A model generated the notes under the pieces. That model was not told where the DNA came from. It saw nothing but the letters and a program-made list of their open reading frames with translations, and did no database searches. From UHGV virus genome UHGV-0175797: a DNA stretch of 23,684 nt, one strand, 5' to 3'. The position numbers and the translations under genes were made by a program. This DNA is from a virus. Every line of letters starts with the position of its first letter. Position 1 is the stretch's first letter. This document shows, in pieces, positions 3,836 through 23,684 of this stretch.

Positions 3836-3839
3836 TTCC

Positions 3840-5315: not shown

Positions 5316-5318
5316 TTC

Positions 5319-6367: not shown

Positions 6368-6370
6368 TGC

Positions 6371-7387: not shown

Positions 7388-7388
7388 T

Positions 7389-7896: not shown

Positions 7897-7924
7897 AGAT
7901 TTTTCCTTTTATGTTAATTGACAT

Positions 7925-7953
7925 GGCGGTGCGGTAACACCGCCCATTTTTTA
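7925..7953 (+). terminator. rho-independent terminator-like hairpin (GGCGGTG-cggtaa-CACCGCC followed by CATTTTTTAT)
   Basis: 7-bp GC-rich perfect stem with a 6-nt loop and a T-tract on the + strand, located between the low-GC cassette and the gemA-like gene. Confidence 0.55.
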
Positions 7954-7966
7954 TGGAGCCACGATA

Positions 7967-8479: not shown

Positions 8480-8483
8480 CCCC

Positions 8484-8515
8484 AAATCCCGCCACAGCGC
8501 GGGATTTTTATTTTA
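8484..8515 (+). terminator. rho-independent terminator-like hairpin (AAATCCCGC-cacagc-GCGGGATTT followed by TTATTTT)
   Basis: Perfect 9-bp stem plus T-tract immediately after the gemA-like stop and about 35 bp before the Mor/C-family start. Confidence 0.65.
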
Positions 8516-8549
8516 AACTTGCCCTGTGTAATGATGACCGGAGGCGGGT

Positions 8550-8972: not shown

Positions 8973-9043
8973 TATTCCGCAAATCCTGCCCCCTTTTCCT
9001 CACGGTTACGCTGACTCAGAGAACACCATGAGACAGCGTAACA

Positions 9044-9544
9044 ATGCCAAAACTCCCCGCACCCCTGCGTAAAAAGCTGATTGCCCTTGTTCTGGCCGGA
9101 GCCGGGACGTTCACCATTGCCACGCACTACACCGGCTACTGGGAAGGGAAAGAAAACACCACGTACATTGATCCCACCGGCACCCCCACCATCTGTTACG
9201 GCCATACCGGCCCGGATGTGAAACCGGGGATGACAAAAACTGATGAAGAGTGTCTGGAGCTGCTGGAAAAGGACATGAAATGGGCCTTTGCGGCTATCGA
9301 TCGTCATGTTCAGGTGCCGCTTACCCGTGGTCAGACGGTGGCGCTGGCCTCCTGGATTTTCTGGGCCGGTGAAACGAACTTTCGCAACTCCACGCTCCTG
9401 CGCCTTATCAATGCCGGGCAGATGCCCGCGTCCTGTAAGCAGTATATCCGCTGGATTTATTCAAAGGGGGTAAAACTCCCCGGTCTTGAGGCCCGCCGTT
9501 CGGCGGATGAATGGTTATGTCGTTACGATTTGCCGAAAGTCTGA
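9044..9544 (+). CDS. SAR-endolysin (GH24 T4-lysozyme-like muramidase with N-terminal signal-anchor-release domain)
   Basis: Catalytic-triad-type motif YWEGKENTTYIDPTGTPTICYGHT (E...D...T) preceded by a weakly hydrophobic Gly/Ala-rich N-terminal segment LIALVLAGAGTFTIATHY after a basic patch (LRKK), as in the P1 Lyz and phage 21 R SAR endolysins. Confidence 0.85.
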   Translation: MPKLPAPLRKKLIALVLAGAGTFTIATHYTGYWEGKENTTYIDPTGTPTICYGHTGPDVKPGMTKTDEECLELLEKDMKWAFAAIDRHVQVPLTRGQTVALASWIFWAGETNFRNSTLLRLINAGQMPASCKQYIRWIYSKGVKLPGLEARRSADEWLCRYDLPKV

Positions 9545-9617
9545 ACCGCTTCTGGCGACCGCTCATGATTGCGCTGCTGTGTGCCGTTGTGCTGCTGCGG
9601 GGTGTGCTGTGTCTGCG

Positions 9618-10007
9618 GTGAACAATCCCTTACCGGCCCTGATTGCCGGAGGCTGTATGGCGGCGCTGGGGGTGATGAGCGTGCTGGCTGCCGTGGTATG
9701 GGGAATGCACCAGAAGACGCAGCGCCTTGAGGACAATAATCATGTGCTTGTGCGTGAACGGGACGAAGCCCGTCTGGTGCTGGCAAACCAGCAACGCACC
9801 CTGCAACTCATTTCACAAATCAGCAAGGCGGCCACGAATGAAAAACAGCAGAACATGCAGCACAGCGAGGAACAGCAGAGCATTGTCCGCCGGTCACTGG
9901 CAACGGTGCCTGCTGCCGCTGTGCCTGTGCCTGATGATGTGGCTGACCGGGTGCGGCGGGCCGTCTGTGAAATTCGTCCCTGTGCCGCCGGTGCCGATCC
10001 CCGCTGA
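9618..10007 (+). CDS. i-spanin (Rz-like): N-terminal transmembrane segment plus periplasmic coiled coil
   Basis: TM segment LPALIAGGCMAALGVMSVLAAVVWG followed by a charged helical region (QKTQRLEDNNHVLVRERDEARLVLANQQRTLQ). Track ORF 9486 starts inside the endolysin; GTG 9618 gives a full TM segment, ATG 9657 has the better RBS, so the start is uncertain. Confidence 0.6.
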   Translation: MNNPLPALIAGGCMAALGVMSVLAAVVWGMHQKTQRLEDNNHVLVRERDEARLVLANQQRTLQLISQISKAATNEKQQNMQHSEEQQSIVRRSLATVPAAAVPVPDDVADRVRRAVCEIRPCAAGADPR

Positions 10008-10290
10008 ATGGCTGGCTGACTGCCTGGTCCCTCCCGCGCCGCAGCCGTTCACGTTTGGTGCATCGGTCACTTACAACCTGCAACTGCTGGCGGTGATTAA
10101 AAACTGCAACGTGGACAAGGCCAGCATCCGCCGTCTGGAGACACAGCGACAGCAGGCACCGTTGCCATTAGCCGCGATGACTTTGAAGACGACAATCTTG
10201 GCATCTACTCCCCGTTGTTCCAGGAGATGGGGCGCGCTGCGGCGGCACAACCGGATGAACTGGTCTTTGCTGCACTGCGTGATGGTCTGA
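9838..10290 (+). CDS. o-spanin (Rz1-like lipoprotein) in the +1 frame overlapping the i-spanin; its 3' part reads out of frame into the major-head remnant
   Basis: Lipobox LTGC preceded by a hydrophobic core (CLLPLCLCLMMW) and followed by a Pro-rich mature region (VPVPPVPIPAEW...PPAPQPF). An alternative TTG start at 9883 gives a 23-aa signal peptide. The ORF has no stop until 10290, i.e. it runs across the proposed deletion junction. Confidence 0.45.
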   Translation: MKNSRTCSTARNSRALSAGHWQRCLLPLCLCLMMWLTGCGGPSVKFVPVPPVPIPAEWLADCLVPPAPQPFTFGASVTYNLQLLAVIKNCNVDKASIRRLETQRQQAPLPLAAMTLKTTILASTPRCSRRWGALRRHNRMNWSLLHCVMV

Positions 10291-10856
10291 ATGCGGCCTG
10301 CTATGACGGCCAGAACTTCTTTGATACCGAACACCCTGTTTACCCCAAAGTGGATGGCTCCGGTGATGCACAGATGGTCAGCAATATGTTTGTGGCAAAA
10401 ACCGGCTCTGTCGGTGCACAGGCGGATTACAGCGGCCCGGCCTGGTATCTGCTTGACTGCTCCCGCGCGGTAAAACCGCTGATTTATCAGGATCGCCGCA
10501 AGGCCGAACTGGTTGCCCAGACAAAAGTCGATGAAGGCCGTGCGTTTACTGATAACGAGTTTGTGTTCGGTGCTTCCGCCCGTCGCAATGTGGGCTACGG
10601 CTTCTGGCAGATGGCCTACATGATGCAGTCACCGCTGACGCTGGATGCGCTGTGGCACGGCTGGTCAGCCATGCGTGACTTTAAGGCTGACGGTGGCCGC
10701 AAACTCGGCATCAAACCCACCCATATTGTTGTCCCCACCTCGCTGGAAAAACAGGCGGTGCAGCTGCTGGAGCGCGAGCTGTTCGCGGACGGTAACACCA
10801 CCGTCTCTAACGAGATGAAGGGCAAGCTGGAGCTGGTTGTCGCGGATTATCTGTAA
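10101..10856 (+). pseudogene. 5'-truncated major head subunit remnant (Mu gpT family), C-terminal two-thirds only
   Basis: Frame 0 is open from the stop at 10098-10100. Similarity to the Mu-type major head protein begins around ...ISRDDFEDDNLGIYSPLFQEMGRAAAAQPDELVFAALRDGLNAACYDGQNFFDTEHPVYP and runs to the C-terminus. There is no ATG/GTG in frame before TTG 10215 / ATG 10227, and no N-terminal about 90 aa. Confidence 0.6.
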
Positions 10857-10899
10857 ACGGTGAGCCGGGCTTACGGCCCGGCCCCTGCGGAGGGCAAAT

Positions 10900-11253
10900 A
10901 TGAATGAACATCACACTGTGGCAGCAACAGATGATTCAGGCCTTCAGGTCAGTGGTGACAGTCCTGTCACGGTACTGGCAGAAGTGCGTTGCAGTCGTGC
11001 GCAGTTTCGTCGTGCGGGGTTCCTGTTCATGCGGGGACGCCAGCAGGTTGACGTCACCCCGGAGCAGCTTGCCCGACTGGAAGCGGAGCCATGCCTCACT
11101 GTACGAATACTACAGACGCCTGGTGATGATGCGGGAGCCGTGGCGGGTGTGGTTCATGCAGAGACCGGTGCAGATTTAGCCGAAGCCGGACAGGATGCTC
11201 CCCGGAAAAAGACCGGCAATAACGCCAGACAGGCGAAAAAGGCTCGCGCATGA
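10900..11253 (+). CDS. hypothetical virion-associated protein (position of Mu gp35)
   Basis: GGAGGG RBS before ATG 10900; the stop overlaps the next start (ATGA). Chosen over the alternative frame 10904..11179 because of coupling and RBS. Confidence 0.45.
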   Translation: MNEHHTVAATDDSGLQVSGDSPVTVLAEVRCSRAQFRRAGFLFMRGRQQVDVTPEQLARLEAEPCLTVRILQTPGDDAGAVAGVVHAETGADLAEAGQDAPRKKTGNNARQAKKARA

Positions 11254-11669
11254 ATTACGCCACCGAAACCGATATGCGGGCACGTTACCGCGAGGATTTG
11301 CTCAGGCCATTACTGGCCGTGCCCCGTTCGGATGAGCCGGACGCGCGCAAGCTGAACCGGGCACTGACGGACGCGTCTGCCCTTATCGACAGTTACCTGT
11401 CTGCCCGTTACACGCTGCCGCTGGCGGTGGTTCCGGCGGTCCTTGTTCAGCATTGCTGCACGATTGCCTTTTATTACCTGTGCGATCAGCGGGCATCCGA
11501 TCAGGCGCGTGACCGTTACCGTGAGGCGCTGGCCTGGCTGAAAGATGTCATGAACGGTAACGTGCCGGTCGGCGTGGATACAGACGGTGCGGCCCCTGAA
11601 TCCGGGGATTTACCGCAGGTGCAGTCTGATGCGGCGGTGTTCGGGCGCAACCAGAAGGGCTTTATATGA
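11250..11669 (+). CDS. Mu gp36-like protein (DUF1320 family, head-tail joining region)
   Basis: 139 aa; position and size match Mu gp36; coupled start and stop overlaps. Confidence 0.55.
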   Translation: MNYATETDMRARYREDLLRPLLAVPRSDEPDARKLNRALTDASALIDSYLSARYTLPLAVVPAVLVQHCCTIAFYYLCDQRASDQARDRYREALAWLKDVMNGNVPVGVDTDGAAPESGDLPQVQSDAAVFGRNQKGFI

Positions 11670-12229
11670 TTACGGAAACCGAGCAAGCGTACATCGCCCG
11701 TATCCGTGAGTATTTCGGGAATGAACTGGTGTCAGTTGACACGCATCCCGGCGACTGGAGCGACAGTGTGCTGCGCACCATGCTGATTAGCGCCCCGGCG
11801 ATCTACGTTGCCTGGCTGGGTGCCGGTGAAGGCCGTACCCGTGGGCGTCTGGTCAGCCACTGGGTGTTCTACGTCATCGGCGACATGCTCAATGGCCGTG
11901 AGGTCAGCCGTCCCGGGCTTTATCAGATTGTGGCCCGCCTGATTACCGTGCTGGACGGCTTCAGAACCGAAAAAACCTCACCGCTTTACTTTGAAAAGGC
12001 GGTCAACGGTTACACCGAAACGCAGGCCGACAGTGGCGCGGTGATGTATGCGCTTTATTTCTCCTGCGAGGAAATGATCGCACCGCTGACTGATATCAGC
12101 TCGCTGGATGATTTCCTGCGCCATTACGAAACCTTCACCGAACCGGAAGGCACACCGGAATTTAAGGCGCACATCAGCCTGCCAGGTGCAACCGCCGCCG
12201 GTGAAAAAGCCGGACCGTCAGAGGAATAA
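11666..12229 (+). CDS. Mu gp37-like virion morphogenesis protein
   Basis: 187 aa; synteny with Mu gp37; ATGA overlap with the upstream gene. Confidence 0.55.
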   Translation: MITETEQAYIARIREYFGNELVSVDTHPGDWSDSVLRTMLISAPAIYVAWLGAGEGRTRGRLVSHWVFYVIGDMLNGREVSRPGLYQIVARLITVLDGFRTEKTSPLYFEKAVNGYTETQADSGAVMYALYFSCEEMIAPLTDISSLDDFLRHYETFTEPEGTPEFKAHISLPGATAAGEKAGPSEE

Positions 12230-12232
12230 CAG

Positions 12233-12520
12233 ATGACAACCATTTTTATCAAACCCGCGCCGGGATGCCTGATCCGCGATCCGGACACCATGAAACCGCT
12301 GGCGCAGGAGGGAGAGGAAAAACCCTTCACCCCGTTCTGGTGCCGCCGTCTTAATGACGGGGACGTCATTGTGGTGGAAAAAGCGGCTGAAGCAGCACCG
12401 GCAGCAGCGTCTGCAACGACTGATGCCGCCGGAAAACCCGCGGGAGCGGCAGCAGAAAAACCTGCGACTGAAAAACCCGCGACTGAAAAACCCGCAGCAT
12501 CAGACAAGGGGACGTCCTGA
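12233..12520 (+). CDS. Mu gp38-like small protein with C-terminal Ala/Pro/Lys/Glu-rich repeat linker
   Basis: 95 aa; low-complexity C-terminus (KPATEKPATEKPA); its stop overlaps the sheath start (TGATG). Confidence 0.5.
   Translation: MTTIFIKPAPGCLIRDPDTMKPLAQEGEEKPFTPFWCRRLNDGDVIVVEKAAEAAPAAASATTDAAGKPAGAAAEKPATEKPATEKPAASDKGTS
12455..12499 (+). repeat. 15-bp tandem direct repeat (GAAAAACCYGCGACT, about 2.7 copies) encoding the (EKPAT)n linker
   Basis: Three consecutive near-identical 15-mers are directly visible in the sequence. Confidence 0.7.
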
Positions 12521-14022
12521 TGATTAACTTTGATTATATCGGCGATAACAATCGCATTCCGCTGGTACAGATTGAAATCAATAATTCAATGGCCGTGACC
12601 GGCACTCCACCACAGCGTCAGGCGGTACTGTTGTTTGGTCAGGCTGCAATGAAAGACACCACCATTCAGGGGCGCGGTCAGCTTGATGTACCAGTACGTA
12701 TTACCCGAGCTTCACAAGCAAGAGAACTCTGGGGGCGAGGTTCCATGATTGCACTGATGGTAGAGGAATTTATCGCCATTAACCCTGACACAGAGTTATA
12801 TGCCATTGCACAGGGGGCTGGAACAGGTCAGTCCAGGGCATGCGTGATGAATATCATTGGAACAGCATTGGCAGACGGGGTGTTAAGTGTTTACATCGGC
12901 GGTCGCCGTTACCTCCTGCCCGTCAGTAAGGGGAAAAAAGGTAAAGAGCTTGTGGAAGAGCTGGCTAAGGTCATTAACGCTGACACTGATGCGCCATTCA
13001 CTGCTATCGCAGCTGAAGTCAGTGGTGATAATGCTGAAGGACTTAAAGGGAGCATGGGGGTTAACGCCCGCTTTATCGGTGAATGCTCAGCTCATGATTT
13101 ACGGGTGAACTATTATGACGGTGAAACTACACCGGCCGGTCTTACGCTGGAGCTCGTCGCGCCAACACAGAAGGCAACAAACCCCGATATCACCCGTAGC
13201 GTCTCAGGGATGGGGAATCGTCAGTACAACTACATCGTCATGCCCTATAAGGATGCGGCAAATCTCAAAATTCTGGCGGATGAACTGCTGAAACGCTGGG
13301 GACCGGTAAAAATGTCGGACGGTATGGTCTGGATGGCGCATACCGGCACCTTCGGTACGGCAACCAGTTTTGGTGAATCCCGTAATGACTTCCTGTTTAC
13401 CTGCACTTCTATTCCTAAAGCACCAGAGCCGGATTATGTCTGGGCGGCCTCCATTTGTGCGGTCTGTGCGCCCTCCCTGTCAACGGATCCGGCCCGACCA
13501 TTACAGACACTGGCGCTGCCTGCCCGTATGGCACCTGAAGCACCGGCTCGTCTGACGCGGGAAGAGCGAAACAGCCTGCTTTATACCGGCATGTCCACGG
13601 TGACCGTTGCGGCCGCTGATGTGGTGCAGATTGAACGTCAGGTGACGATGTACCGTCAGAATGCATACGGCGAAAGCGATCCCAGCTATCTGGATGTAGA
13701 AACCATCTACACCCTGTCATATCTGCGTTATTCCCTGCGCACCTTTATCACGCAGCGTTTCCCGCGCCACAAACTGGCCGATAACGGTACTCCCGTCCGG
13801 CCCGGTCAGAATATCGTGACGCCGGAGATTATGACGCTCCAGCTGATTGCACTGGGGGAAGAATGGGTGGAACTCGGGCTGGTCGAAAATCTGGACACCT
13901 TTAAAAAGAATCTGCTCGTGGAGCGCAACACAAAAGACCGTAACCGTCTGGATGTGATGTGTACACCGGATCTGGTTAACCAGTTCCGCTTCATGGCCGC
14001 GCAGATCCGTTTCATTTTGTGA
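12520..14022 (+). CDS. contractile tail sheath protein (Mu gpL-like)
   Basis: 500 aa; the N-terminus (DYIGDNNRIPLVQIEINNS) is typical of myophage sheath proteins; followed by a tube gene as in Mu L-M. Confidence 0.85.
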   Translation: MINFDYIGDNNRIPLVQIEINNSMAVTGTPPQRQAVLLFGQAAMKDTTIQGRGQLDVPVRITRASQARELWGRGSMIALMVEEFIAINPDTELYAIAQGAGTGQSRACVMNIIGTALADGVLSVYIGGRRYLLPVSKGKKGKELVEELAKVINADTDAPFTAIAAEVSGDNAEGLKGSMGVNARFIGECSAHDLRVNYYDGETTPAGLTLELVAPTQKATNPDITRSVSGMGNRQYNYIVMPYKDAANLKILADELLKRWGPVKMSDGMVWMAHTGTFGTATSFGESRNDFLFTCTSIPKAPEPDYVWAASICAVCAPSLSTDPARPLQTLALPARMAPEAPARLTREERNSLLYTGMSTVTVAAADVVQIERQVTMYRQNAYGESDPSYLDVETIYTLSYLRYSLRTFITQRFPRHKLADNGTPVRPGQNIVTPEIMTLQLIALGEEWVELGLVENLDTFKKNLLVERNTKDRNRLDVMCTPDLVNQFRFMAAQIRFIL

Positions 14023-14030
14023 GGTAAGGC

Positions 14031-14396
14031 ATGAGCGGAAAACAGCATCAGGGCACGGCCACCATCCGTGTGAACGGACAGGAGTACGCCACCCTTGAGG
14101 GAGCCACGTTCTCCCCGTCCGGCTTTGAGCGTGAAGTGGTGAAAGGCGCGAAAGTCTATGGCTATCGTGAGAAACCCCGTGAGGCGACGCTGGACTGTAA
14201 ATTTCCGGCTGGCGGAGAAGGTTCACCGGCTGCCGATGAAATCAACACCTGGACTGCGGTCACGATTGAGTTCGTGGCCGATACCGGTGAAGTCCATATG
14301 ATGACGAAGGCCTGGAGCAGTGAACCGGCCTCGCTTGACGGTGGCGGTGATATCTCCGCGAAGTTCGCCAGCGCCACCAGTACCCGTGTCCAGTAA
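14031..14396 (+). CDS. tail tube protein (Mu gpM-like)
   Basis: 121 aa, immediately after the sheath; size and position are typical. Confidence 0.75.
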   Translation: MSGKQHQGTATIRVNGQEYATLEGATFSPSGFEREVVKGAKVYGYREKPREATLDCKFPAGGEGSPAADEINTWTAVTIEFVADTGEVHMMTKAWSSEPASLDGGGDISAKFASATSTRVQ

Positions 14397-14410
14397 TCAG
14401 GAAAAATGCA

Positions 14411-14890
14411 ATGACCACACGTAAGAAAAAAACGGCGGTTTCTGACGAGGCCGTGATGGAGGCTATCCGGGATGTACTTGAAGACGGCGATCCCCGCACC
14501 GCCGGGCTGGCTGAACAGCTGGCGAACGGCTATGTGGATCTGCTCGACGGTCTGCCGTTCGGGGAATCCCGTGAATACCGCGTCACCTTCCGCGAACTGA
14601 CGGCGAAAGACAGCATTGACGCGGAAACCGAGGCCGAGCGTCTTATGGAAACCCGAAATGGCGGCCCGGTTCTGATAGCCTCGCCGGCACTGCGCGGCAT
14701 TGCACTGCTGCGCCGTCAGATTGCCGCTGTTGGCCAGATTGAGGGGCCATTGTCTCCGCGTCAGATCGGACAGCTCAGCGAGCGCGATCTCTCCCGTCTG
14801 ATGGCGGCGGTAAGCCTGCTTGATTCCGCGATGGCAGGAAAGCTGGTCGCTGAACGGGGGCGACCAGATGCAGTGCCGGGATCAGATTGA
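14411..14890 (+). CDS. tail assembly chaperone (Mu gp41-like)
   Basis: 159 aa acidic protein directly upstream of the tape measure gene, with an overlapping alternative-frame ORF at its 3' end. Confidence 0.6.
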   Translation: MTTRKKKTAVSDEAVMEAIRDVLEDGDPRTAGLAEQLANGYVDLLDGLPFGESREYRVTFRELTAKDSIDAETEAERLMETRNGGPVLIASPALRGIALLRRQIAAVGQIEGPLSPRQIGQLSERDLSRLMAAVSLLDSAMAGKLVAERGRPDAVPGSD

Positions 14891-15014
14891 AGAAGCCGCA
14901 ATTGTGCTGGGGATGGTGACAAAAAGCGGCCCGGAGTGGGCGCTTAACCTCCCCTTATCGCAGCTTTACCGGCACTGCCGACAGACCGAAAAAATTCTCA
15001 GAACGAAGCAGTAA
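14820..15014 (+). CDS. possible frameshift extension of the tail chaperone (or an independent 48-aa ORF from ATG 14868)
   Basis: ORF in the +1 frame relative to the chaperone, overlapping its last 70 nt and ending 3 nt before the tape measure start. Confidence 0.3.
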   Translation: MIPRWQESWSLNGGDQMQCRDQIEEAAIVLGMVTKSGPEWALNLPLSQLYRHCRQTEKILRTKQ

Positions 15015-15017
15015 CCC

Positions 15018-17075
15018 ATGGCAAAAAACCTGAAAGCCTCCCTGATTGTCGATTTACTCGGCAATATTTCCGCCAAATCCCGCCAGTGGTCACAGGAGCT
15101 GGGGGCATTCTCCCGTTCCGGCAGGACGGGGCTGGGTGGTCTTGGAAATGCAGCACGCCGGGCCGGTCAGGAAACAGAGCTTGTTGGCTCCCGTATGCAG
15201 CGAACGCTTGCCGGTGTTCGTGGCAGTATCCGCACGGTAACGTCAGATTTTGACCGCCTGCAGGGCAGCATTACCGGCACCATCGGGCGGATAAGCAACC
15301 TTTACGGGATGCTGGCGGGAGGGGCTGCGGTCTACGGTTTTAATAAAGCCTTTATCCGCCCGGCCGCAGAGATGGAGAACTATATTCTGCGTCTCAACGC
15401 CATTAATCATGGCGATAAGGCAAAAACGGAAGCAGTGAAAGCCTGGGCGGTACAGAACGCCAAAGACACCACCTGGGGGCTGGCGGGGGTTATGCAGGAA
15501 TACGCCTCCAGTCGCGGGTTTGGCATGAGTGACAGGGAAGCCCGTCGCTTTATTACCATGCTTCAGGATCAGGGCGGCTATCACGGCTGGTCACTGTCAG
15601 AGGCACAGGGTGCGTCCCTGCAACTCAAACAGATGTTTGCCCGCCAGAGTATCCAGGCAGCGGACGCCAATATTCTGACCGGATACGGGATTAACGTTTA
15701 CCAGTTACTGGCCGATAAGCTGGGTGTAAACCAGAAGATCATCCGTGAGAAAGGCGAGAAAGGAAAACTGGGACCGGACAGCATTCGCCTGTTATTTCAG
15801 GTGATGGCCGAACAGGCAAAAGGTGCCCAGAAAAACGCCATGAACTCATGGACGGGAATGACGTCCATGATGGGTGACGTCTGGGATCAGTTTGCCCGTG
15901 ACGTGATGGCGAAGGGACCGTTTGACAGCCTGAAAAAGAGCCTGAAAGGCTTTCTGGATTATGCCGATGCGGCACAGAAAAGCGGCTTACAGGATAAGCT
16001 GGCCACACAGACGGCCTCAGCACTGAATCAGGGATTTGAGTATGCCAGAGATGCTGCGACCGGCTTTTACCGGGCCATTCAGAAAGTCAGGGAAACGCTT
16101 CAGGCACTGCGCGACGCCGGTTATGGCGATGCGCTGGATCGTATTGGTCAGGGTGCGCAGACCGCCGCAAAGTACCTGATGTATATGTATCTCGCCTCCC
16201 GTGCGCTGAAGGTGCTCAGGTTTGCAGGGACGGGGGCATTACGTCTCGGCGCAACCCCCTTACGCTATGGCATGGCGATGACCTCCGTGCTGACGTCGCC
16301 CTTCCGCAAACCGCAGACCACTGTACCGGGAACGCAGCACGGACGCGCTGGACGGTTCCTGAATTTCCTTACCGGGGTAAATCCGGCTGCCGTTCAGCCC
16401 GTGCTGGTCACCAACTGGCCTGCGGGTGGCCTGGCCTCAGGTGGCGGGGATGTGGTGGTCAGCGGTGACGGCAAAACCGTGCGCGGCCGTAAAAAACGCG
16501 GCCCCGGACGTGGACGGGGTGTCACGACCGTCGTGACTGCCGGTGAGCAACTGGCGGAGAGTGCCGGTAAACAGGGCTTCTTCGGTCGTATGATGAGCCG
16601 TGCCGGTGGTCTGCTAACGGCGGCCGGAAACCGCATGGGGCTGGGGCGTTTTGCCGGGCTGTTCCGTGGTGCCGGTCGGCTGGGTGGTGGTGCCCTGTGG
16701 GCCGGTGCCATGGCGGCTCCTGTACTGCTGGACAGCAGCGCCAGTGCAGCCGATAAAGCCGGTGCCGTGGGTTCTCTTGCCGGAAGTATCGCCGGTGGCG
16801 CGCTGGGGGCGGCTGCCGGTCCGGTCGGGGTTGCCATTGGTTCCACGGTGGGCAGCTATCTCGGTGATTATCTGGGGGGCTGGCTGACGCAGGCCTGGCA
16901 GAAACTGCGTGGCAGCAGTGACGAAAACGGCGGACAGGCCACCGCGAAAACCGCCGCACGGGTGGAGCTTGTGGCCCCTGAAGGCTGGCGGGCGCGCAGT
17001 ATTGATGTGGATGATACCGCACAGCATGGCCTGGATGTGAACGTCTGGAACGGAGGGAACTATGGCCTCTACTGA
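15018..17075 (+). CDS. tail tape measure protein
   Basis: 685 aa; helical N-terminal two-thirds and Gly/Ala-rich C-terminal region; position between the chaperone and the DNA-circularization-like gene. Confidence 0.85.
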   Translation: MAKNLKASLIVDLLGNISAKSRQWSQELGAFSRSGRTGLGGLGNAARRAGQETELVGSRMQRTLAGVRGSIRTVTSDFDRLQGSITGTIGRISNLYGMLAGGAAVYGFNKAFIRPAAEMENYILRLNAINHGDKAKTEAVKAWAVQNAKDTTWGLAGVMQEYASSRGFGMSDREARRFITMLQDQGGYHGWSLSEAQGASLQLKQMFARQSIQAADANILTGYGINVYQLLADKLGVNQKIIREKGEKGKLGPDSIRLLFQVMAEQAKGAQKNAMNSWTGMTSMMGDVWDQFARDVMAKGPFDSLKKSLKGFLDYADAAQKSGLQDKLATQTASALNQGFEYARDAATGFYRAIQKVRETLQALRDAGYGDALDRIGQGAQTAAKYLMYMYLASRALKVLRFAGTGALRLGATPLRYGMAMTSVLTSPFRKPQTTVPGTQHGRAGRFLNFLTGVNPAAVQPVLVTNWPAGGLASGGGDVVVSGDGKTVRGRKKRGPGRGRGVTTVVTAGEQLAESAGKQGFFGRMMSRAGGLLTAAGNRMGLGRFAGLFRGAGRLGGGALWAGAMAAPVLLDSSASAADKAGAVGSLAGSIAGGALGAAAGPVGVAIGSTVGSYLGDYLGGWLTQAWQKLRGSSDENGGQATAKTAARVELVAPEGWRARSIDVDDTAQHGLDVNVWNGGNYGLY

Positions 17076-18420
17076 CACGCCGGGGCGTGGCTCCTTTCGT
17101 GGCGTACCGTTCCTGGTTTATCAGGAGCAGCGGGAACGGGGCGGACGTAACATTGTGCGCCGTGAATACCCACTGCGTGAAAGCGGCGGTGCGGATGATC
17201 TGGGGCCAAAACTCCCGGAGTTCACATTCACGGTTCTAGTGACCGGAGACGATCTTCAGACACAGCGAAGCCGCCTGCGTGATGCGCTGCGTGCACCCGG
17301 TGCCGGTGAACTGATGCACCCGGATTACGGCACGTTAAACGTGCTGATAAACAGCTTTGAAAGCCGTTATAACGCCAGCGAGCAGGGAACGGTTGAGTTC
17401 ACGATCAACGTGATCCCCGCCAGTGACGATACCGCCCCTTCGGTGGCAGAAGATACGGCAGCTGCGCTGGAGCAGAAAAGCGGCTCAGCAATGAATCAGC
17501 TGTTTAACACACTTTCAGACGGCTGGACGGTGATTTCAGACGGTCTGCATGATGTACAGGCCATGACCGACACCATCAGCGATAAAATTGATGCGCTGGA
17601 GAATGCCGTTTCAGGGATGGGGATTGTGCAGGATATCAGTGCCTTTACGGCCAGTTTTACTGCCCTGAAAGGGAATGCCGCCGCCCTGATTAATGCGCCC
17701 CGTCGCATGGCTGAATCGCTGGCCGGAATGTTTGCCGTGCTGGCGGGGCTGCCCGGCGATCCTTCCCTGTCGCTGACCGGAAAAGCCGGAACGCCGTCCG
17801 GCAGCCTGACCACAAACCGTGACAGCACGACAGAGCAGGCCATGCCGCAGCTGTACCGCACACTTTCTTCCCTGCGTTACACCCTCAGCGAACAGGATGA
17901 TCCGCAGCGCCTGATTGGTCTGACGCCTGCGGCACAGAACAATATCCGTCTGCTGCGGAGCGTCATGCAGAGTGCAGCCCTGGTGTCGCAGGCGCAGACG
18001 GTCGGAAAACTGCTGGATCAGGTCATCCGGCAGAATACGACGCACGTTCAGGATACTGACCGTGCGGGCGGACTGGCCTGGCTGGAAAGTTCTGCTGATG
18101 TGCAGCGTATCAACCGGGATTTGAGCGATGCCATGGAACAACAGGTGCTGGATCTGTCCGCACAGGGCCATACCGGCACCGCCCTTGCATTACGTGATGC
18201 AGGGCTTGCGCTGACAGAAGATTTAACCACGCGGAGCGTGCATCTTCCCGGTGCTTTTCAGGTCATGGTGCGAACCACCGAACCGGCACTGGTCACGCTG
18301 TACCGTGCCACCGGTAACAGCCGCCGCTGGCAGTATTTTGTCCGCAGAAACAATATCCCCGATCCGGTTTTTGTTCCGGGTGGCCGCCGCGTGGAGGTGA
18401 TCAGTGAGCAGCAGGATTGA
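17062..18420 (+). CDS. DNA circularization protein N-like (Mu gp43 family)
   Basis: 452 aa; N-terminal region (GRGSFRGVPFLV...GGRNIVRREYP) is typical of the DNA circulation protein family; syntenic with Mu N. Confidence 0.75.
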   Translation: MASTDTPGRGSFRGVPFLVYQEQRERGGRNIVRREYPLRESGGADDLGPKLPEFTFTVLVTGDDLQTQRSRLRDALRAPGAGELMHPDYGTLNVLINSFESRYNASEQGTVEFTINVIPASDDTAPSVAEDTAAALEQKSGSAMNQLFNTLSDGWTVISDGLHDVQAMTDTISDKIDALENAVSGMGIVQDISAFTASFTALKGNAAALINAPRRMAESLAGMFAVLAGLPGDPSLSLTGKAGTPSGSLTTNRDSTTEQAMPQLYRTLSSLRYTLSEQDDPQRLIGLTPAAQNNIRLLRSVMQSAALVSQAQTVGKLLDQVIRQNTTHVQDTDRAGGLAWLESSADVQRINRDLSDAMEQQVLDLSAQGHTGTALALRDAGLALTEDLTTRSVHLPGAFQVMVRTTEPALVTLYRATGNSRRWQYFVRRNNIPDPVFVPGGRRVEVISEQQD

Positions 18421-19528
18421 ACTGTATATCGGCGGCAGTATTTTTTCCGGCTGGCTGACGGTCAGCGTCCGTCGCTCGCTGGAGCATCTGGCCGGGTCGT
18501 TTGAACTGGGGCTGATGCTGCCCGGTGAGCGCATCCCCTCAGCCCTGCGGACCGGTCAGTCCCTGACGCTCAGAATTAACGGGCAGACGGTCATCAGTGG
18601 CTGGCTGGATCAGGTCAGTCAGCGGATCAGTGCAACCCGTCATCAGATCAGCATCAGCGGTCGGGATAAAACCGGCGACCTGGTGGACTGTGCCGCCATC
18701 CATCCCGGCAGCCAGTGGCGCAACCGGACGCTGGCACAGATTGCCGCAGATTTATGTGCGCCCTTCGGGATAGCCGTGCGCTGGCAGGTTAACGACGACA
18801 CGGCTGCACGCCCCTTCAGCTCTTTTACGCTGGAAAACTCAGAAACCGTGGCGGATGCGCTGACCCGTGCTGCCCGGCATCGCGGGGTGCTGGTGACCAG
18901 TAATGCTGACGGCGATCTGGTGTTCACCCAGGCAGGAAGCCAGCAGACGGACAGACTGGTGCTGGGAGATAACCTGCTTGATGCCGATTACAACACGGAC
19001 TGGCGAGGACGATACAGCGAATACCGTGTCCGGGGACACGGGCGCGGTGGTGGCAAACGGGGAGACAGCGAATCCGCCGCCCGTCTGGCAGCACCTGTGG
19101 GCGTCATCAGTGATGAGCAGATCGGCCGCTACCGGCCGAAAATCATCCTCGCCGATCAACAGACAGACATCACCGGTGCACGGCAGCGTGCCCTGCGTGA
19201 AATGCGCCGTGCGATTGCCCGTTCAGAACGGTTTTCTGCCACCGTGCGTGGCTGGTTCCGGGATGATGGCCGGTTATGGGATGTCAATCTGCTGACCGGT
19301 GTTTCAGCCCTGCGTTTCGGTATAGAACAGACTGAACTGCTGGTCTGTCAGGTGGAGTTTTTACTTGATGAGCATAACGGGGAAGTCACCCGGCTGGTAC
19401 TGGCACCGCGTGACGGCTTTATCGTTCCGGCAGAGCCGGACAGTAAGGGCCGGGGTGGTTCCGGTGACGATGTTGATGCCTTTATTCGCCAGCAGATGAA
19501 AAAACAGGGGATCAGCTTTGATGAATGA
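18404..19528 (+). CDS. baseplate hub / tail protein (Mu gp44 P-like, P2 gpD-like)
   Basis: 374 aa against about 379 aa in Mu; N-terminus IELYIGGSIFSGWLTVSV is typical of the family. Confidence 0.75.
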   Translation: MSSRIELYIGGSIFSGWLTVSVRRSLEHLAGSFELGLMLPGERIPSALRTGQSLTLRINGQTVISGWLDQVSQRISATRHQISISGRDKTGDLVDCAAIHPGSQWRNRTLAQIAADLCAPFGIAVRWQVNDDTAARPFSSFTLENSETVADALTRAARHRGVLVTSNADGDLVFTQAGSQQTDRLVLGDNLLDADYNTDWRGRYSEYRVRGHGRGGGKRGDSESAARLAAPVGVISDEQIGRYRPKIILADQQTDITGARQRALREMRRAIARSERFSATVRGWFRDDGRLWDVNLLTGVSALRFGIEQTELLVCQVEFLLDEHNGEVTRLVLAPRDGFIVPAEPDSKGRGGSGDDVDAFIRQQMKKQGISFDE

Positions 19529-20132
19529 TGAAGTGTTCAGCCGCCTGATTGCCCCGGTAACGCGCGGTATTCGCCTGTTGTTTGGCCGGGGCGTTCTGAC
19601 CGGCACACATGACGAACTGAAAATGCAGAATGTGCAGCTCACCGGCATGGACGGCGAAACCTTTGATGATGTGGAGCGTCCCCAGCAGTACGGGCAGATC
19701 AGCGTTCCCCTGCCGGGTGCGGAAACCTTTTTTGCCTGTCTGGGCGGACAGCGGGATCAGACTGTGGTGCTTGTGGTGGAAGACCGGCGCAGCCGCCCGA
19801 CCGGACTCACAGCCGGAGATACGGGGGTGTATCACCATGAGGGGCACCGGATACGGTTAACAAAGGATGGCCGCATTATTGTGACATGCAAAATGCTGGA
19901 GATTTACGCCGACGAGGGGATGCGGGTGGATACGCCGGAAGCCACCTTTACGGGCAATGTGACGGTGGATAAGAACCTGCATGTTAAGGGTAATTTCGCG
20001 CTTGAGGGTACGGGGAAATCTCAGGGACTGTTCACAATGTCGGATGCCGTTATTGCAGGGATACGGTATTCCGGCCATGTGCATCATGATAACGGCGAAG
20101 GCAGTAAGACAGGAGTGCCGGAGAATGGCTGA
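19518..20132 (+). CDS. baseplate spike / assembly protein V-like (Mu gp45)
   Basis: 204 aa; C-terminal region (FTGNVTVDKNLHVKGNFALEG...HVHHDNGEG) is typical of gpV-type spike proteins. Confidence 0.75.
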   Translation: MMNDEVFSRLIAPVTRGIRLLFGRGVLTGTHDELKMQNVQLTGMDGETFDDVERPQQYGQISVPLPGAETFFACLGGQRDQTVVLVVEDRRSRPTGLTAGDTGVYHHEGHRIRLTKDGRIIVTCKMLEIYADEGMRVDTPEATFTGNVTVDKNLHVKGNFALEGTGKSQGLFTMSDAVIAGIRYSGHVHHDNGEGSKTGVPENG

Positions 20133-20562
20133 TATTGCAATTGTGTGGGATCAGGGATGCGGTTCGCTGCAACTGAACGGTGCCGACCTGCTGACGGATG
20201 ACAGTCTGCTGACGGCCGTTCTGATTTCGCTGTTTACTGACCGCCGGGCGCTGGCATCGGATGAAATCCCTGACGGTACGCGCGACCGCCGGGGATGGTG
20301 GGGAGACAGTTTTCGCCCGCGCCCCATTGGCTCCCGTCTGTGGCTTCTCAGCCGGGAAAAAACGCTGGCCTCGGTGATAAGCCGTGCCCGTGCTTACGCG
20401 GATGAGGCGCTGGGCTGGCTCAGTCAGGATGGCGTGGCGTCATCCGTGGTCTGTCATGCAGAACGTGTGGGACACGCGCGGCTGGCGCTTTCGGTGCGCA
20501 TAACCCTGCCTGATGGTTCAGTGAGGCCCATGATTTTTTATGCTGATCTTAAGGGGGAGTAA
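20125..20562 (+). CDS. GP46-family baseplate protein (Mu gp46-like)
   Basis: ATG 20125 overlaps the upstream stop (ATGGCTGA); 146 aa against about 140 aa in Mu gp46. The track ORF 19981 start lies inside the upstream gene. Confidence 0.7.
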   Translation: MADIAIVWDQGCGSLQLNGADLLTDDSLLTAVLISLFTDRRALASDEIPDGTRDRRGWWGDSFRPRPIGSRLWLLSREKTLASVISRARAYADEALGWLSQDGVASSVVCHAERVGHARLALSVRITLPDGSVRPMIFYADLKGE

Positions 20563-21644
20563 TGCCTTATCAGCCTTTACCGCTGGCACAGTTAATCACG
20601 CAGACACAGCAGGATATCAGCCAGCGCCTGCCCGGCTCGCAGCCGGGTGTGAATGAAACCACCCTGAATGCCATTGCTTACGCTCAGGCAGGGTTATCTG
20701 CTCAGGAGCATGAGCATCTGGCCTGGATTGCGCGTCAGATCATCCCGACCGAAGCCGATGAAGCCGAACTGCTGAAACACTGTGCATTCTGGGGCGTCAT
20801 GCGTAAGCCTGCCTCTCGGGGGGACGGGCCGGTTCAGCTGATGCTGACCACGGATGCGGGGATCAAGGAAGGTGTGCTTCTCCAGCGAAGTGATGGCGTG
20901 GTTTACCGTATCACCACCTCCCTGACCGGTAAGGCCGGTACGCTGAATGTCAGTGTGGAAGCCGAAAGTGCCGGTCGTGCGGGGAATGCCCCGGCAGGGA
21001 CAAAACTGACATTTATCACACCGCAGGCGGGGATCAACCAGACGGCCACGGTGACCGGAACGGGGATCACCGGTGGTGCGGATGTGGAAACCGTGCCGGA
21101 GCTGCTTTCCCGTCTGGTTTTCCGGGTGCAGAATCCACCGTCCGGCGGCACGCAGTATGATTTTGAACGCTGGGCGCGTGAAGTGCCGGGCGTGACGCGG
21201 GCATGGTGCCGCCCGGAATGGCCGCAGGCGGGCAGCGTGGGGGTAACGTTTGTTCAGGATAATAACCCGGATATTTTCCCCGGTGACGGTGATGTTCAGC
21301 GGGTGGCGGATTATATCCGCAGTCATGATGATCCGGCGACCGGCCAGCCTGTCGGACAGCCTCTGGGGCCGACGGTGACCGTGTTTAAACTGACCAATAA
21401 GCCGGTGCCCTTCAGCATCAGGATCATCCCGAAAACACCGGAGAATCAGGCGGCCGTAAAACAGGCGCTGACCGACCTGTTGTATAACGAATCCCGGCCC
21501 GGCGGTCTGGTTCTGCCGTCGTCTTTCTGGCGGGCGGTGGCAGGGGTGAAAAATCTGGAGGATTTTGAAGTGCGCAGTCCGCTGACGTCAGTTCAGGCGG
21601 GAGACAGTGAGCTGCTGACGGTAGGAGAAATCACATGGCTGTAA
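20562..21644 (+). CDS. baseplate J-like wedge protein (Mu gp47-like)
   Basis: 360 aa against about 355 aa in Mu; coupled start (TAATG); sequence character typical of the baseplate J family. Confidence 0.8.
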   Translation: MPYQPLPLAQLITQTQQDISQRLPGSQPGVNETTLNAIAYAQAGLSAQEHEHLAWIARQIIPTEADEAELLKHCAFWGVMRKPASRGDGPVQLMLTTDAGIKEGVLLQRSDGVVYRITTSLTGKAGTLNVSVEAESAGRAGNAPAGTKLTFITPQAGINQTATVTGTGITGGADVETVPELLSRLVFRVQNPPSGGTQYDFERWAREVPGVTRAWCRPEWPQAGSVGVTFVQDNNPDIFPGDGDVQRVADYIRSHDDPATGQPVGQPLGPTVTVFKLTNKPVPFSIRIIPKTPENQAAVKQALTDLLYNESRPGGLVLPSSFWRAVAGVKNLEDFEVRSPLTSVQAGDSELLTVGEITWL

Positions 21645-22195
21645 CCCTGACCCCGCATCAGCGCGCCCTGTTGCAGTTACTGCCTGACGGGCTGGCATGG
21701 GACAAGCGTCCGTCATCCGTACTGGCATCATTATGTCTGGGCCTCAGTCATTCGACAGCGCGTGTATCCTGGACGGGTAAACAGCTGCTTGCCGAGCGTT
21801 TCCCTGACACGTCGCGCCTGCTGCTGGAAGACTGGGAGCGTTATCTCGGGCTTCCCGAGTGTGATATGGCCGGAGCCACCCTCACGGAGCGACAGCGTTA
21901 TGCCGGAAATAAATACCGGATGAAGCCCTCGCTGAACCGTGAATTTTATATCCGGTTTGCGGCGGAGTTTGGTTATCAGATTGACATTCAGCCCTCACCG
22001 GATTCGCAGTGGGTCAGTATTGTCACGATTAACAGTGAAACCGGCTACCGGAATATGAATGTGCTGGATGATATTCTCACGCCGCTGCGTATTTATGAAG
22101 GCGGTGCGCTGGAATGTATTCTGAACCGTTATAAGCCTGCATGGCAGACGTTTATTTACGTTTATGCAAACAGCCATGAAGAGGAGACTATTTAA
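21635..22195 (+). CDS. tail protein (Mu gp48-like, DUF2313/YmfQ family)
   Basis: 186 aa against about 187 aa in Mu; motifs [11 protein letters not shown] and [12 protein letters not shown] are typical of the family. Confidence 0.7.
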
Positions 22196-23076
22196 TGTTT
22201 CATGTTGATAATAATTCCGGCGTGGCGAATATGCCTGCGCTGGCACCGGCGCAGAGTAATACCACCACCTGGTTTACCGAAGGTGACGGACAAAAAGGTA
22301 TCAGCTGGATTGGTCAGGACTGGCTGAATATTCTCCAGGCCGAACTGCTGAATATTCTGGCTGAAGCCAGTATTCAGCCGGATAAGGCGCAGTTAAACCA
22401 GCTTACGCTGTCCATTAAAGCCATTATCGCTGCGAATGCCTTTTCCCGGAAAAATAACCTGAAAGAAATTGCTGATGCCGGTGCGGAGGCCCAGCGTCTG
22501 GCCCGTGGTTATCTTGGTCTGGGGACGCTTGCCACAAAAAACAGTCTTGGTCCCGCTGACGTTAATGCCCTGGCGAAGGATCAGAATCTCGCCGACCTGG
22601 AGAATAAGGGAACCGCCCGTAATAATCTGGATGTTTACAGCAAAAGCGAAGGTGATAACCGTTACCTGCGCAGGGAGCAGAACGGCGCAGACATTCCGGA
22701 TAAAGGGGCTTTTATCGATAACGTCGGTTTACGGGAAACGGTAAACAGGGCGGCGAATGCCCTGCCATCGGACGGCACCGCCGTTGCCGCGAACAGGCTG
22801 GCAAATGCCCACACAATTAATGGTGTTCCCTTTGACGGGACGCAGGATATCACTATCTCATCAGGAACAGTAACCGCCATAAGACTGGGGTCGGTGACCG
22901 CACATATGCCCGGAACATGGGAAAGCTGGGATCTGAATCTGGGGGGCGGCAATGTTCTTACCGGAATTAAAGTACAGGATGTCGGTAAGAATACGGCAGA
23001 TAACGTCGGCGGCGTGTATTACCGGCCGTTGCAGTATCTGTTAAATGGAGCATGGGTGACGGCTGCAAGTATATAA
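22195..23076 (+). CDS. tail fibre protein (constant N-terminal part plus currently fused variable C-terminal part)
   Basis: 293 aa; N-terminus typical of P2/Mu-type fibres; contains a gix-like crossover site at 22712..22737; AT-richer 3' part. Confidence 0.75.
22712..22737. other. gix/hix-like 26-bp recombination (inversion crossover) site inside the tail fibre gene
   Basis: TTATCGATAACG-TC-GGTTTACGGGAA. Against the Mu gixL site as I remember it (TTATCCAAAACC-TC-GGTTTACAGGAA in this orientation), about 22 of 26 positions match, including the central TC. Confidence 0.6.
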
Positions 23077-23084
23077 TGATATTC

Positions 23085-23110
23085 AGAAGGCCTTCCGGCC
23101 TTCTTTATTA
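23085..23110. terminator. bidirectional terminator-like hairpin between convergent fibre and chaperone genes (GAAGGCC-ttcc-GGCCTTC, A/T runs on both sides)
   Basis: Perfect 7-bp GC-rich stem with a 4-nt loop, followed by TTTATTA on the + strand and preceded by T-rich sequence on the minus strand. Confidence 0.6.
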
Positions 23111-23629
23111 CTGTGGCTGCTCAGGCCATTTAATGGCGTTAAATTCAGCTTCTGTTTTAATGGCGGGTAGTTCCATTTTCTTCACCTGACTGATGTATGC
23201 CATCCATTGGGTAAGTGCTGCTCTGTCTTCATCGCTGATGGTGCCCAGTTGTAGCTCCGTTCTCCAGTCATTAATTTTTTCATATGCCTGATTAAGATAT
23301 GACTGGCGCATTGCTTCCAGTTTTCTTGCGTAGTTAACCGGAATACGGGAGATTATGCCATTATCAAACTTCCAGTTTCCTGAAATATCCGTGCCTTCAG
23401 GGAGTTCATCGACCTCAACCACAGAAAACCCCGCAGGATACAGCGCCGAGGCGTCCTGTGATATTGAGCAGATAACGCCGCTGTCAGGTGTTATGCAAAG
23501 TTTATATTTTTTGGTGAATAATGGCAGGGATTCGTAGAAATCCTTACCATCTTCACTCTGGAAATACTGAACATTATTACCATATGGCATATTTTCAGGA
23601 TAATAACGGGTTATATTTTTTAGTTCCAT
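23108..23629 (-). CDS. tail fibre assembly protein (Tfa / Mu U-family chaperone), opposite strand
   Basis: 173 aa; typical Tfa features (N-terminal MELKNITRYYPEN, central Tyr/Asp-rich region, C-terminal AEFNAIKWPEQP); AGGAGG RBS on the minus strand; AT-rich. Confidence 0.8.
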   Translation of the reverse strand: MELKNITRYYPENMPYGNNVQYFQSEDGKDFYESLPLFTKKYKLCITPDSGVICSISQDASALYPAGFSVVEVDELPEGTDISGNWKFDNGIISRIPVNYARKLEAMRQSYLNQAYEKINDWRTELQLGTISDEDRAALTQWMAYISQVKKMELPAIKTEAEFNAIKWPEQPQ

Positions 23630-23684
23630 AAAATCCTCCTGGAAATAAATCTGTTTTAAAATATATTATTTACTGACTATTTAT

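Follow-up and report, generated by a model that had tools for sequence, protein, structure and literature searches.

A Mu-like prophage of Escherichia coli with an intact tail module and an 8.4-kb deletion in its head region

The window analysed here, a stretch of DNA of 23,684 nucleotides, is one metagenome contig covering most of a Mu-like transposable prophage of Escherichia coli. The element is very probably an ordinary prophage of this kind that was crippled very recently by one 8,430-bp deletion in its head region. An earlier note had read the same DNA as a head-less element with a complete contractile tail, baseplate and fibre module and with tailocin-like potential, offering as the alternative a recently crippled prophage that had not yet decayed. 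It is this alternative that the comparisons bear out, the element being set apart from an intact sibling by the single deletion and, in the 12.9 kb right of the junction, by 2 nucleotides. Free tails may still be possible, with no sign of domestication. The appropriate label for the contig is that of a defective Mu-like prophage lacking 8.4 kb internally, rather than that of a tailocin locus, and beyond correct annotation the significance of the case is small. It carries a caution: an intact tail without a head in a single contig is the appearance of any fresh head-region deletion, and decay and domestication are told apart by comparison with sibling prophages, by the position of the breakpoints and by the retention of replication genes.

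The element and its family

The element is a defective member of a Mu-like E. coli prophage family related to Sp18, defective because its head/packaging block is deleted. The family is found in approximately 4% of complete E. coli genomes, with up to six family-matching places per genome. O157:H7 genomes match the window at 80-93%, and these matches presumably correspond to Sp18, which has been described as Mu-like and as carrying a host-specificity region that can invert (PMC2669165). The left edge of the window falls within transposase A and its right edge within the invertible segment, and both element ends, the pac site and the repressor and ner region lie beyond these limits. The early genes retained include Gam, a kil-like gene and others, as well as the two transposition genes:

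38-1777, + strand: transposase A, left-truncated by the contig end (weak match to Mu A; Mu transposase annotation in E. coli HH35)
1851-2792, + strand: MuB-like AAA ATPase (48% identity to Mu B; AAA ATPase in HH35)

The same B gene in metagenome contig L002 was found by profile search to carry Phage-MuB_C (PF09077). The hallmarks of a Mu-like prophage that were found are a DDE transposase A with a MuB-type ATPase, a Mor/C activator followed by lysis genes and Mu-ordered morphogenesis genes, and an invertible fibre segment with an adjoining serine recombinase, the gene of which lies outside the window and was seen in the intact HH35 prophage (L001). Of the head/packaging block (gp27, gp28, portal, F, I/Z and T), just codons 83-315 of T are left.

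As in Mu (Muvirus mu, AF083977), the late genes run in the order C-type activator, SAR endolysin, spanins, T, gp35-gp38, L and M, and then gp41 with a -2 frameshift, tape measure, N, P, gp45-gp48, and S with an invertible C-terminus. Unlike Mu, the window lacks the interval that opens with the last 17 codons of the o-spanin gene and closes with codon 82 of gp34 (the equivalents of Mu gp24-gp33), contains one Mor/C-family gene instead of Mor plus C, and encodes a transposase only distantly related to that of Mu (25% identity).

The deletion junction and its recency

The features at the junction are as follows:

10154/10155, no strand: deletion junction, with 8,430 bp absent relative to intact relatives and 1 bp of microhomology
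10155-10856, + strand: startless remnant of the major head gene T (702 nt, 234 codons; codons 83-315)
10900-11253, + strand: gp35-like head-to-tail connector (FluMu_N; Mu annotation of gp35)
11250-11669, + strand: gp36/J-like head-to-tail connector (Phage_Mu_Gp36; Mu annotation of gp36)

Positions 1-10154 and 10154-23684 of the window align to the HH35 prophage with 97.5-98.9% identity. At window position 10154, position 15655 of L001 is joined to position 24085, the 8,430 bp between them being absent from the window, and alignment against the intact relative L009 gives the identical junction. The 3' end of the o-spanin gene is thereby fused to codon 82 of T. One illegitimate-recombination event at 1 bp of microhomology would have excised the block between these two points.

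Profile searches of the deleted block identified zf-dskA_traR, DUF2730, gp26, Gp27, large terminase, Portal_Mu, Phage_Mu_F, Phage_tail_S and Mu-like_Pro. The DUF2730 protein shows 33% identity to the Mu gp25 releasin and the large terminase 72% identity to Mu gp28, and the Phage_tail_S (PF05069) protein is a gpG homologue with 55% identity to Mu G. Mu gpG is a tail completion protein, and G mutants yield mostly non-infectious particles (PMC11099176). Named as genes, the losses include a TraR/DksA-like gene, the small terminase gene, the protease/scaffold gene I and the start of T, and a late-promoter-like site upstream of gene I was lost with the block. The earlier statement that head genes are missing is correct to the extent that no terminase, portal, F, protease or scaffold gene was found in the window; however, the T remnant, gp35 and gp36 remain. 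The remnant constitutes the C-terminal two thirds of T, an open reading frame at 10215-10856 matching positions 94-289 of 289 of the Mu-like_gpT profile.

Sequence comparison with intact siblings indicates how recent the event was. Compared with the intact AF39 prophage of E. coli, no nucleotide difference was found in ten of the eleven tail genes or in the T remnant (702 nt), and mismatches are grouped in mosaic patches. The remnant shows no difference from the intact T of L009 and L010, and over 10155-23076 (12.9 kb) the window differs at 2 nucleotides from L010, an NCBI genome with the full head block. The intact E. coli relatives HH35 (NZ_CP136993.2), AF39 (NZ_OZ547136.1) and GCA_052996365.1 share 98-99.98% nucleotide identity with the window on both sides of the junction and have tail proteins identical to those of the window, but, unlike it, retain the 8.4-kb stretch that encodes releasin, terminase, portal, F, G and protease, and have a full-length T. 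A check proposed by the earlier note, whether the head-less layout is conserved across strains, was thus answered in the negative, near-identical sister elements carrying intact head genes, an outcome that the note itself had named as counting against its reading. That the tail, baseplate and fibre genes are undecayed is due to the very recent date of the deletion and not to selection in the head-less state.

A search of 5,426 complete E. coli genomes found the junction nowhere, though 231 of these hold both flanks, and no exact match was present among GTDB species representatives or JGI metagenome contigs. The head block, at a coverage of at least 80%, and the tail block were each found in 227 genomes, equal counts that do not amount to proven one-to-one co-occurrence. 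The junction was found solely in metagenome contigs L002, L004 and L006, which are not necessarily independent samples, and the window differs from L002 at 4 nucleotides. Recovery from at least three assemblies, together with these 4 differences, indicates that the deleted lineage lasted long enough for repeat sampling. It is scarcely credible that the junction is a false join in a prophage that truly has its head genes. Although the window is a metagenome scaffold and assemblers can be confused by related prophage copies, the identical junction occurs in three contigs with 99.98-100% identity to the window, the contig names suggest three assembly pipelines (scaffold, k119 contig and Logan contig), and a de Bruijn graph join needs a shared k-mer, whereas the two sides share just 1 bp.

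Other, independent lesions in sibling prophages look random, striking tail genes as readily as head genes. AST46 has a deletion that starts in the portal gene and ends in the sheath gene, L016 has one of 4,780 bp that starts in the large terminase gene and ends in gene I, IS66 is inserted between the spike gene and gp46 in L012, the fibre gene is split in L013, and L018 is rearranged.

Tail, baseplate and fibre genes

The morphogenesis genes downstream of the connectors are as follows:

11666-12229, + strand: gp37/K-like tail terminator (profile search, Mu comparison)
12233-12520, + strand: gp38-like DUF2635 protein (Mu counterpart annotated as putative sheath terminator)
12520-14022, + strand: tail sheath (Phage_sheath_1 and 1C; 50% identity to Mu L)
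14031-14396, + strand: tail tube (48% identity to Mu M)
14411-14890, + strand: gp41-type tail assembly chaperone (Gp41_Mu)
to 15014, + strand: -2 frameshift extension of the chaperone (slippery site GAACGGGGGCGA at 14852-14863)
15018-17075, + strand: tape measure protein (TMP_3; 35% identity to Mu gp42, full length)
17062-18420, + strand: gpN/DNA_circ_N hub (Pfam/PHROGs, Mu comparison)
18404-19528, + strand: gpP hub (Pfam/PHROGs, Mu comparison)
19518-20132, + strand: gp45 spike (Pfam/PHROGs, Mu comparison)
20125-20562, + strand: gp46 (Pfam/PHROGs, Mu comparison)
20562-21644, + strand: gp47/Baseplate_J (Pfam/PHROGs, Mu comparison)
21635-22195, + strand: gp48 (Pfam/PHROGs, Mu comparison)
22195-23076, + strand: tail fibre, 293 aa (phrog_1833, E = 6.7e-141; 47% identity to Mu S residues 1-191)
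23108-23629, - strand: tail fibre assembly protein inside the invertible segment (Caudo_TAP; phrog_136)

The tail, baseplate and fibre proteins encoded in 12520-23076 show 34-58% identity to their Mu counterparts and follow the Mu gene order (Pfam, PHROGs), and the frameshift site GAACGGGGGCGA and the peptide downstream of it are common to the window and Mu. No internal stop was found in the open reading frames of this interval, their lengths equal those in intact relatives, and most overlap by 1-17 nt. The intact frames described earlier were confirmed. The fibre has 293 aa in the window and 504 aa in Mu. Every structural gene between gp37 and the fibre gene, both included, is intact. The claim that every Mu tail component is present holds for the sheath-to-fibre genes and their Mu order, but not for the gpG-type tail completion gene (PF05069), which was deleted.

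Homology of the fibre to the constant N-terminal part of Mu S ends at about codon 171. Codons 171-218 constitute the left inverted repeat (22707-22850), which pairs with a copy beside the recombinase gene in L001, and the last approximately 75 codons lie inside the invertible segment, the flipped state of which is held by L019. This segment contains one fibre-assembly gene in the window and two in Mu, and in the orientation of the window the sole gene faces opposite to the fibre gene.

Late transcription, lysis and possible fates

The late regulatory and lysis features are as follows:

8550-8972, + strand: single Mor/C-family late transcription activator (PF08765, E = 6.7e-31; 40% identity to Mu C, 28% to Mu Mor)
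8967-9021, + strand: late-promoter-like motif TTCTGAnnnYCCGCAAAWCCWGCCCC...TTACGCT, a putative promoter upstream of the lysozyme gene
9044-9544, + strand: SAR-type endolysin (Phage_lysozyme, E = 1e-36; 40% identity to Mu gp22)
9609-10007, + strand: intact i-spanin (phrog_214 Rz-like spanin; sequence identical to the HH35 protein)
9838-10290, + strand: o-spanin with altered C-terminus (lipobox LTGC, Cys codon at 9952; phrog_3001 positions 1-58 of 70; start codon uncertain)
23085-23104, + strand: terminator-like hairpin after the fibre gene, the sole strong + strand hairpin from the lysozyme gene to the fibre end

The Mor/C activator reported earlier is present and adjoins the lysozyme gene directly upstream, at the place that C occupies in Mu. 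One copy of the promoter-like motif is present in the window, against two in the intact L001 (one upstream of lys, the other of gene I), and none arose in 100 shuffles. No strong + strand terminator was found between 8507 and 23085. If the element were derepressed, the activator would fire the remaining promoter-like site, as its motif suggests, and transcription would probably continue past lys, the spanin genes and the T remnant to reach the tail genes, since no strong terminator comes before 23085.

The endolysin N-terminus consists of RKK and then LIALVLAGAGTFTIA, which is of the signal-anchor-release type, and its E34/D43/T49 spacing matches that of Mu gp22. Mu without gp25 lyses late, at about 3 h instead of about 40 min, and this dependence on gp25 stems from basic residues preceding the SAR domain (PMC9239132); the window endolysin has RKK at the place of these residues. 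In the o-spanin, the last 17 codons are swapped, from 10155, for 45 out-of-frame codons of gene T. The endolysin/spanin cassette of the earlier note is thus preserved in part: the SAR endolysin and the i-spanin are intact, but the o-spanin ends in a replaced C-terminus, and the deletion took out the DUF2730 homologue of the releasin. Release would probably be delayed or poor because the SAR endolysin is without a releasin and the o-spanin C-terminus is altered. Head-defective Mu mutants assemble free tails, and by analogy free tails could assemble from this element, but without the tail completion protein. The gene content, once proposed to suffice for making and releasing tail particles, is incomplete on these same counts, releasin and tail completion protein being deleted and the o-spanin altered, and may fall short; contraction-based killing may or may not depend on G.

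On its own the element cannot make virions; transposition, or packaging with the help of a related prophage, could still occur. That it represents a helper-dependent defective element like a large mini-Mu, with ends, A/B and tail genes, mobilised and packaged by a co-resident intact relative, is nevertheless very improbable. The transposition genes look intact, E. coli genomes offer up to six family-matching places, and the contig break inside the transposase gene fits a second related copy in the sample. However, no helper was found, nor could a single contig show one, the window reaches neither the ends nor the pac site, and such dependence is a possible fate of any deleted Mu-like prophage and not an evolved strategy. 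Near-identity to intact siblings also speaks against a separate satellite lineage.

The crippled-prophage reading was also weighed against an incipient or functional Mu-type tailocin, in which the head-less element is kept since induced free contractile tails kill competing E. coli. This is very unlikely, and the tailocin-like potential proposed earlier was not upheld. The junction was recovered from more than one assembly, but its absence from all 231 flank-bearing complete genomes (0 of the 5,426 overall) means that the head-less layout is not conserved across strains. The structural tail genes are all intact, but just 2 substitutions separate the element from an intact sibling, so that selection in the head-less state is unmeasurable, and the random lesions in sibling prophages affect tail genes equally readily. 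The deletion joins the tail genes to the lys transcription unit, with activator, endolysin and i-spanin present, but its breakpoints cut two genes, and it removed releasin and tail completion protein, altered the o-spanin, and left the T remnant and connector genes behind. Mu-type-tail tailocins exist in Pseudomonas, but described tailocins lost replication, packaging and capsid genes (PMC4542187), whereas transposase A/B, Gam, the kil-like gene and all other early genes, as well as the T remnant, gp35 and gp36, are kept here. If the tailocin alternative were true, the window would capture the birth of a tailocin at its first step; no finding favours this alternative. There is similarly little chance that the deletion is an accidental first step to an enterobacterial Mu-type tailocin, with lys-fused tail genes, killing tails and persistence in the gut.

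The suggestion that a Mu-derived tailocin would be unusual was not upheld either. Mu-type-tail tailocins are already known, the R-type syringacin of Pseudomonas (class Rp4) having been published (PMC4542187; PMC4684702). Like the window, it has a Mu/SfV-type contractile tail module without head genes. No replication, packaging or head genes are left in its cluster, which is kept at a fixed trpE-trpG locus across strains and species and has demonstrated killing activity (PMC4542187; PMC4684702). By contrast, the window keeps transposition/early genes and a capsid-gene remnant and is unconserved, a distinction drawn between published descriptions of syringacin and the genes alone of the window. 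The R-type pyocin of P. aeruginosa, with a P2-type tail, resembles the window in broad outline, as a contractile tail that has no head but has lysis genes of its own; by description (PMC4542187 and general knowledge), it belongs to a different tail lineage and is fully domesticated, with host SOS-linked regulation.

Gene content of the window and the deleted head block

The + strand of the window carries a run of genes with almost no breaks, as follows.

Left window end, +: Mu-type transposase, truncated by the window end
After the transposase, +: MuB-like ATPase
Early region, +: about fifteen small genes, among them homologues of Gam and GemA
8550-8972, +: Mor/C-family activator, single
9044-9544, +: lysozyme
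After the lysozyme, +: spanin genes, overlapping
10155-10856, +: fragment of the major head gene T (Mu-like_gpT profile positions 94-289 of 289)
After the T fragment, +: connector genes gp35 and gp36
After the connectors, +: tail terminator gp37, then a gp38-like gene
12520-23076, +: tail, baseplate and fibre genes

The presence of the tail, baseplate and fibre genes, as described in the earlier note, was confirmed by Pfam and PHROGs for each tail assignment. By BLASTP, the tail proteins are 34-58% identical to those of Mu and stand in strict Mu order, with overlaps of 1-17 nt between most adjacent genes. In the tail chaperone gene, the programmed -2 frameshift site GAACGGGGGCGA (14852-14863) is conserved with Mu, as is the peptide downstream of it, even though the two chaperones share just 50% identity. 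Rfam and tRNA scans across the window gave no matches. A mosaic patch at 4776-5310 with a 180-aa ORF (4773-5315) is unmatched in the prophages of E. coli HH35 and AF39, which are otherwise 97-99% identical; this ORF probably represents cargo that was exchanged in the early region.

A query with the whole window matched 249 of 5,426 complete E. coli genomes, and in the best matches (about 98% identity) the 23.7-kb query was stretched over 31.6 kb of chromosome. Alignment with the intact HH35 prophage (L001) showed that its positions 15655 and 24085 meet at window 10154, corresponding to an 8,430-bp deletion with a single base common to both sides. The 36-nt junction sequence is GGAGACACAGCGACAGCAGGCACCGTTGCCATTAGC. 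On the left, the breakpoint lies 17 codons short of the end of the o-spanin gene, which then reads 45 out-of-frame codons; on the right, it lies at codon 82 of T, leaving 234 T codons (10155-10856). The deleted block contains the following genes.

TraR/DksA zinc-finger protein
DUF2730 protein, 33% identical to the Mu gp25 releasin
gp26
Gp27 small terminase
82-aa protein
Large terminase
Mu-type portal
F
Phage_tail_S protein, 55% identical to Mu G
I, protease/scaffold
Start of T (last part of the block)

An assembly artefact was considered as the source of the junction and rejected, given the single-base overlap of its sides and its recurrence in other metagenome contigs. Within the deleted block, intact relatives carry a minus-strand 'tRNA-OTHER' annotation between F and G (L001 21936-22015). 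The head-block query also gave a short match to a host tRNA-Tyr gene.

Occurrence and age of the deletion

The junction was seen only in three metagenome contigs (L002, L004 and L006), whose samples may not be independent. L002, the ENA metagenome scaffold PASO19-1_SAMN09781754_METAG-scaffold_541 (23,682 bp), is 99.98% identical to the window, with 4 mismatches in 20,630 bp. The window is itself a complete metagenome contig, and its near-identity to this scaffold indicates that its ends, which fall inside transposase A and inside an invertible segment, are assembly breaks rather than element boundaries. Among the 5,426 complete E. coli genomes, both flanks are present in 231 and joined in none; 227 genomes have the head block at a coverage of at least 80%, and 227 have the tail block at that coverage. 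Exact junction searches of GTDB species representatives and of JGI metagenome contigs returned no match, nor did look-ups of two alternative junction products, an o-spanin fusion of 150 aa and a T fragment of 213 aa read from a TTG start. Two further contigs were rejected as evidence of the deletion. L005 has a 209-aa T fragment but begins only beyond the junction, 73 bp to its right, and is uninformative because an exact-product look-up catches any contig starting at that codon. In L003, the 209-aa call stems from a split T and not from the deletion of the window.

The flanks were compared with those of intact prophages. Against the AF39 prophage (L009), the T remnant and 10 of 11 tail genes showed 0 nucleotide differences, and the 53 mismatches were confined to three mosaic patches. 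The earlier note had named sister elements with intact head genes as evidence against its tailocin-like reading, and such elements were found: L010, an NCBI genome in which the head block is complete, differs from the window by 2 nucleotides in 12.9 kb (10155-23076), both in the tape measure gene. To the left of the junction, 3 nucleotides in 2.2 kb differ between the window and the sibling prophage L016. At the sequence level, the right flank and tail module are thus almost identical to those of intact prophages. With only 2 substitutions over 12.9 kb against an intact sibling, dN/dS of the tail genes, proposed earlier as a check, is not meaningful, and where other relatives are more distant, the divergence arose while the phage was still complete.

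Expression, release and the fibre segment

A 26-nt motif, TTCTGAnnnYCCGCAAAWCCWGCCCC, followed by TTAYGCT, was found upstream of the lysozyme gene (window 8967-9021). Intact relatives have a second copy upstream of gene I (L001 14468-14522 and 22655-22709 for the two copies), and the two copies stand where Mu has its C-dependent promoters for lys and I. The motif was found nowhere other than at the lys and I sites and never in shuffled sequence; counterparts of the P and mom promoters of Mu were detected neither by position scoring nor with as many as 3 mismatches allowed. The lack of such counterparts, taken with the single Mor/C-family gene, suggests a late regulatory circuit simpler than that of Mu. 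The I-side promoter-like copy was lost with the deletion. The tail genes would now probably be read from the lys-side site, because no strong + strand terminator was found between 8507 and 23085.

In a classical report by Grundy and Howe in 1985, head-defective Mu mutants reportedly make free tails, which renders tail assembly by the window element plausible. Mu gp25 is required for timely release of the SAR endolysin; without it, lysis comes at about 3 h instead of about 40 min, and this dependence comes from basic residues ahead of the SAR domain (PMC9239132). The endolysin of the window has RKK ahead of its SAR domain, the DUF2730 releasin homologue is deleted, and the C-terminus of the o-spanin is replaced. 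In addition, the homologue of gpG, the Mu tail completion protein whose mutants yield mostly non-infectious particles (PMC11099176), is absent from the window through deletion. The loss of the releasin and gpG and the altered o-spanin make it less likely that working particles are produced and released efficiently.

A Gin-type invertible segment, together with its left repeat, covers 22707-23684 and runs on past the window end (compare L001 36626-37977 and, in the sibling prophage L019, 20188-21503). It is flanked by a 144-bp, 87%-identical inverted repeat and holds a fibre-assembly gene together with the final ~75 codons of the fibre gene. Unlike in Mu, the segment has only one assembly gene, so that one orientation is without a co-oriented chaperone. 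In the assembled orientation, this sole gene is on the strand opposite to the fibre gene, and L019 represents the flipped state, in which the fibre has 296 aa and the assembly gene comes after it, co-oriented.

Relatives and the tailocin-like reading

Tailocins described so far have lost replication, packaging and capsid genes and occupy conserved loci (PMC4542187). The window lacks two of these defining features: the replication genes have not been lost, and the head-less state of the element is not conserved. It may also fall short of a complete tail set and of a working lysis cassette. A Mu-derived tailocin, which the earlier note expected to be unusual, would not be new in kind, since the R-type syringacin of Pseudomonas syringae has already been published with a Mu/SfV-type tail (PMC4542187; PMC4684702). 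Given the nearly identical intact siblings and the absence of the junction from complete E. coli genomes, the tailocin-like interpretation is not supported.

The alternative offered at the same time, a recently crippled prophage, is correct: the element is nearly identical to intact siblings, and the lesions of sibling prophages are unrelated to each other. The window is best classed as a defective prophage from a Mu-like family that is well sampled in E. coli. In an assembly collection, 2,609 indexed blocks contain the identical sheath protein, and most of the subset of contexts read have a full head block. In the phage collection, no close relatives were found among isolated phages, the only long matches being Mu-like insertions in two Stx-phage records. 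O157:H7 genomes match the window at 80-93% identity and are presumably Sp18 carriers. Sp18 was reported to be intact, with an invertible host-range region, and, like Mu, not mitomycin C-inducible (PMC2669165), so the induction protocol proposed earlier is unlikely to work.

The sibling lesions affect head and tail genes alike, a pattern of prophage decay and not of selection for a tail-only element. In L016, 4,780 bp are missing between sites in the large terminase gene and in gene I that share 7 bp of microhomology, and this deletion fuses the terminase and protease genes in frame (about 5708-7390). In strain AST46 (L008 18030-21069), a deletion starts in the portal gene and ends within the sheath gene. 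In L012, an IS66 element interrupts the baseplate operon between the spike gene and gp46 (17587-20354), the fibre gene of L013 is split, and the copy in L018 is rearranged. The lesions of L016, L008 and L012 could form a small natural series on Mu-like prophage decay.
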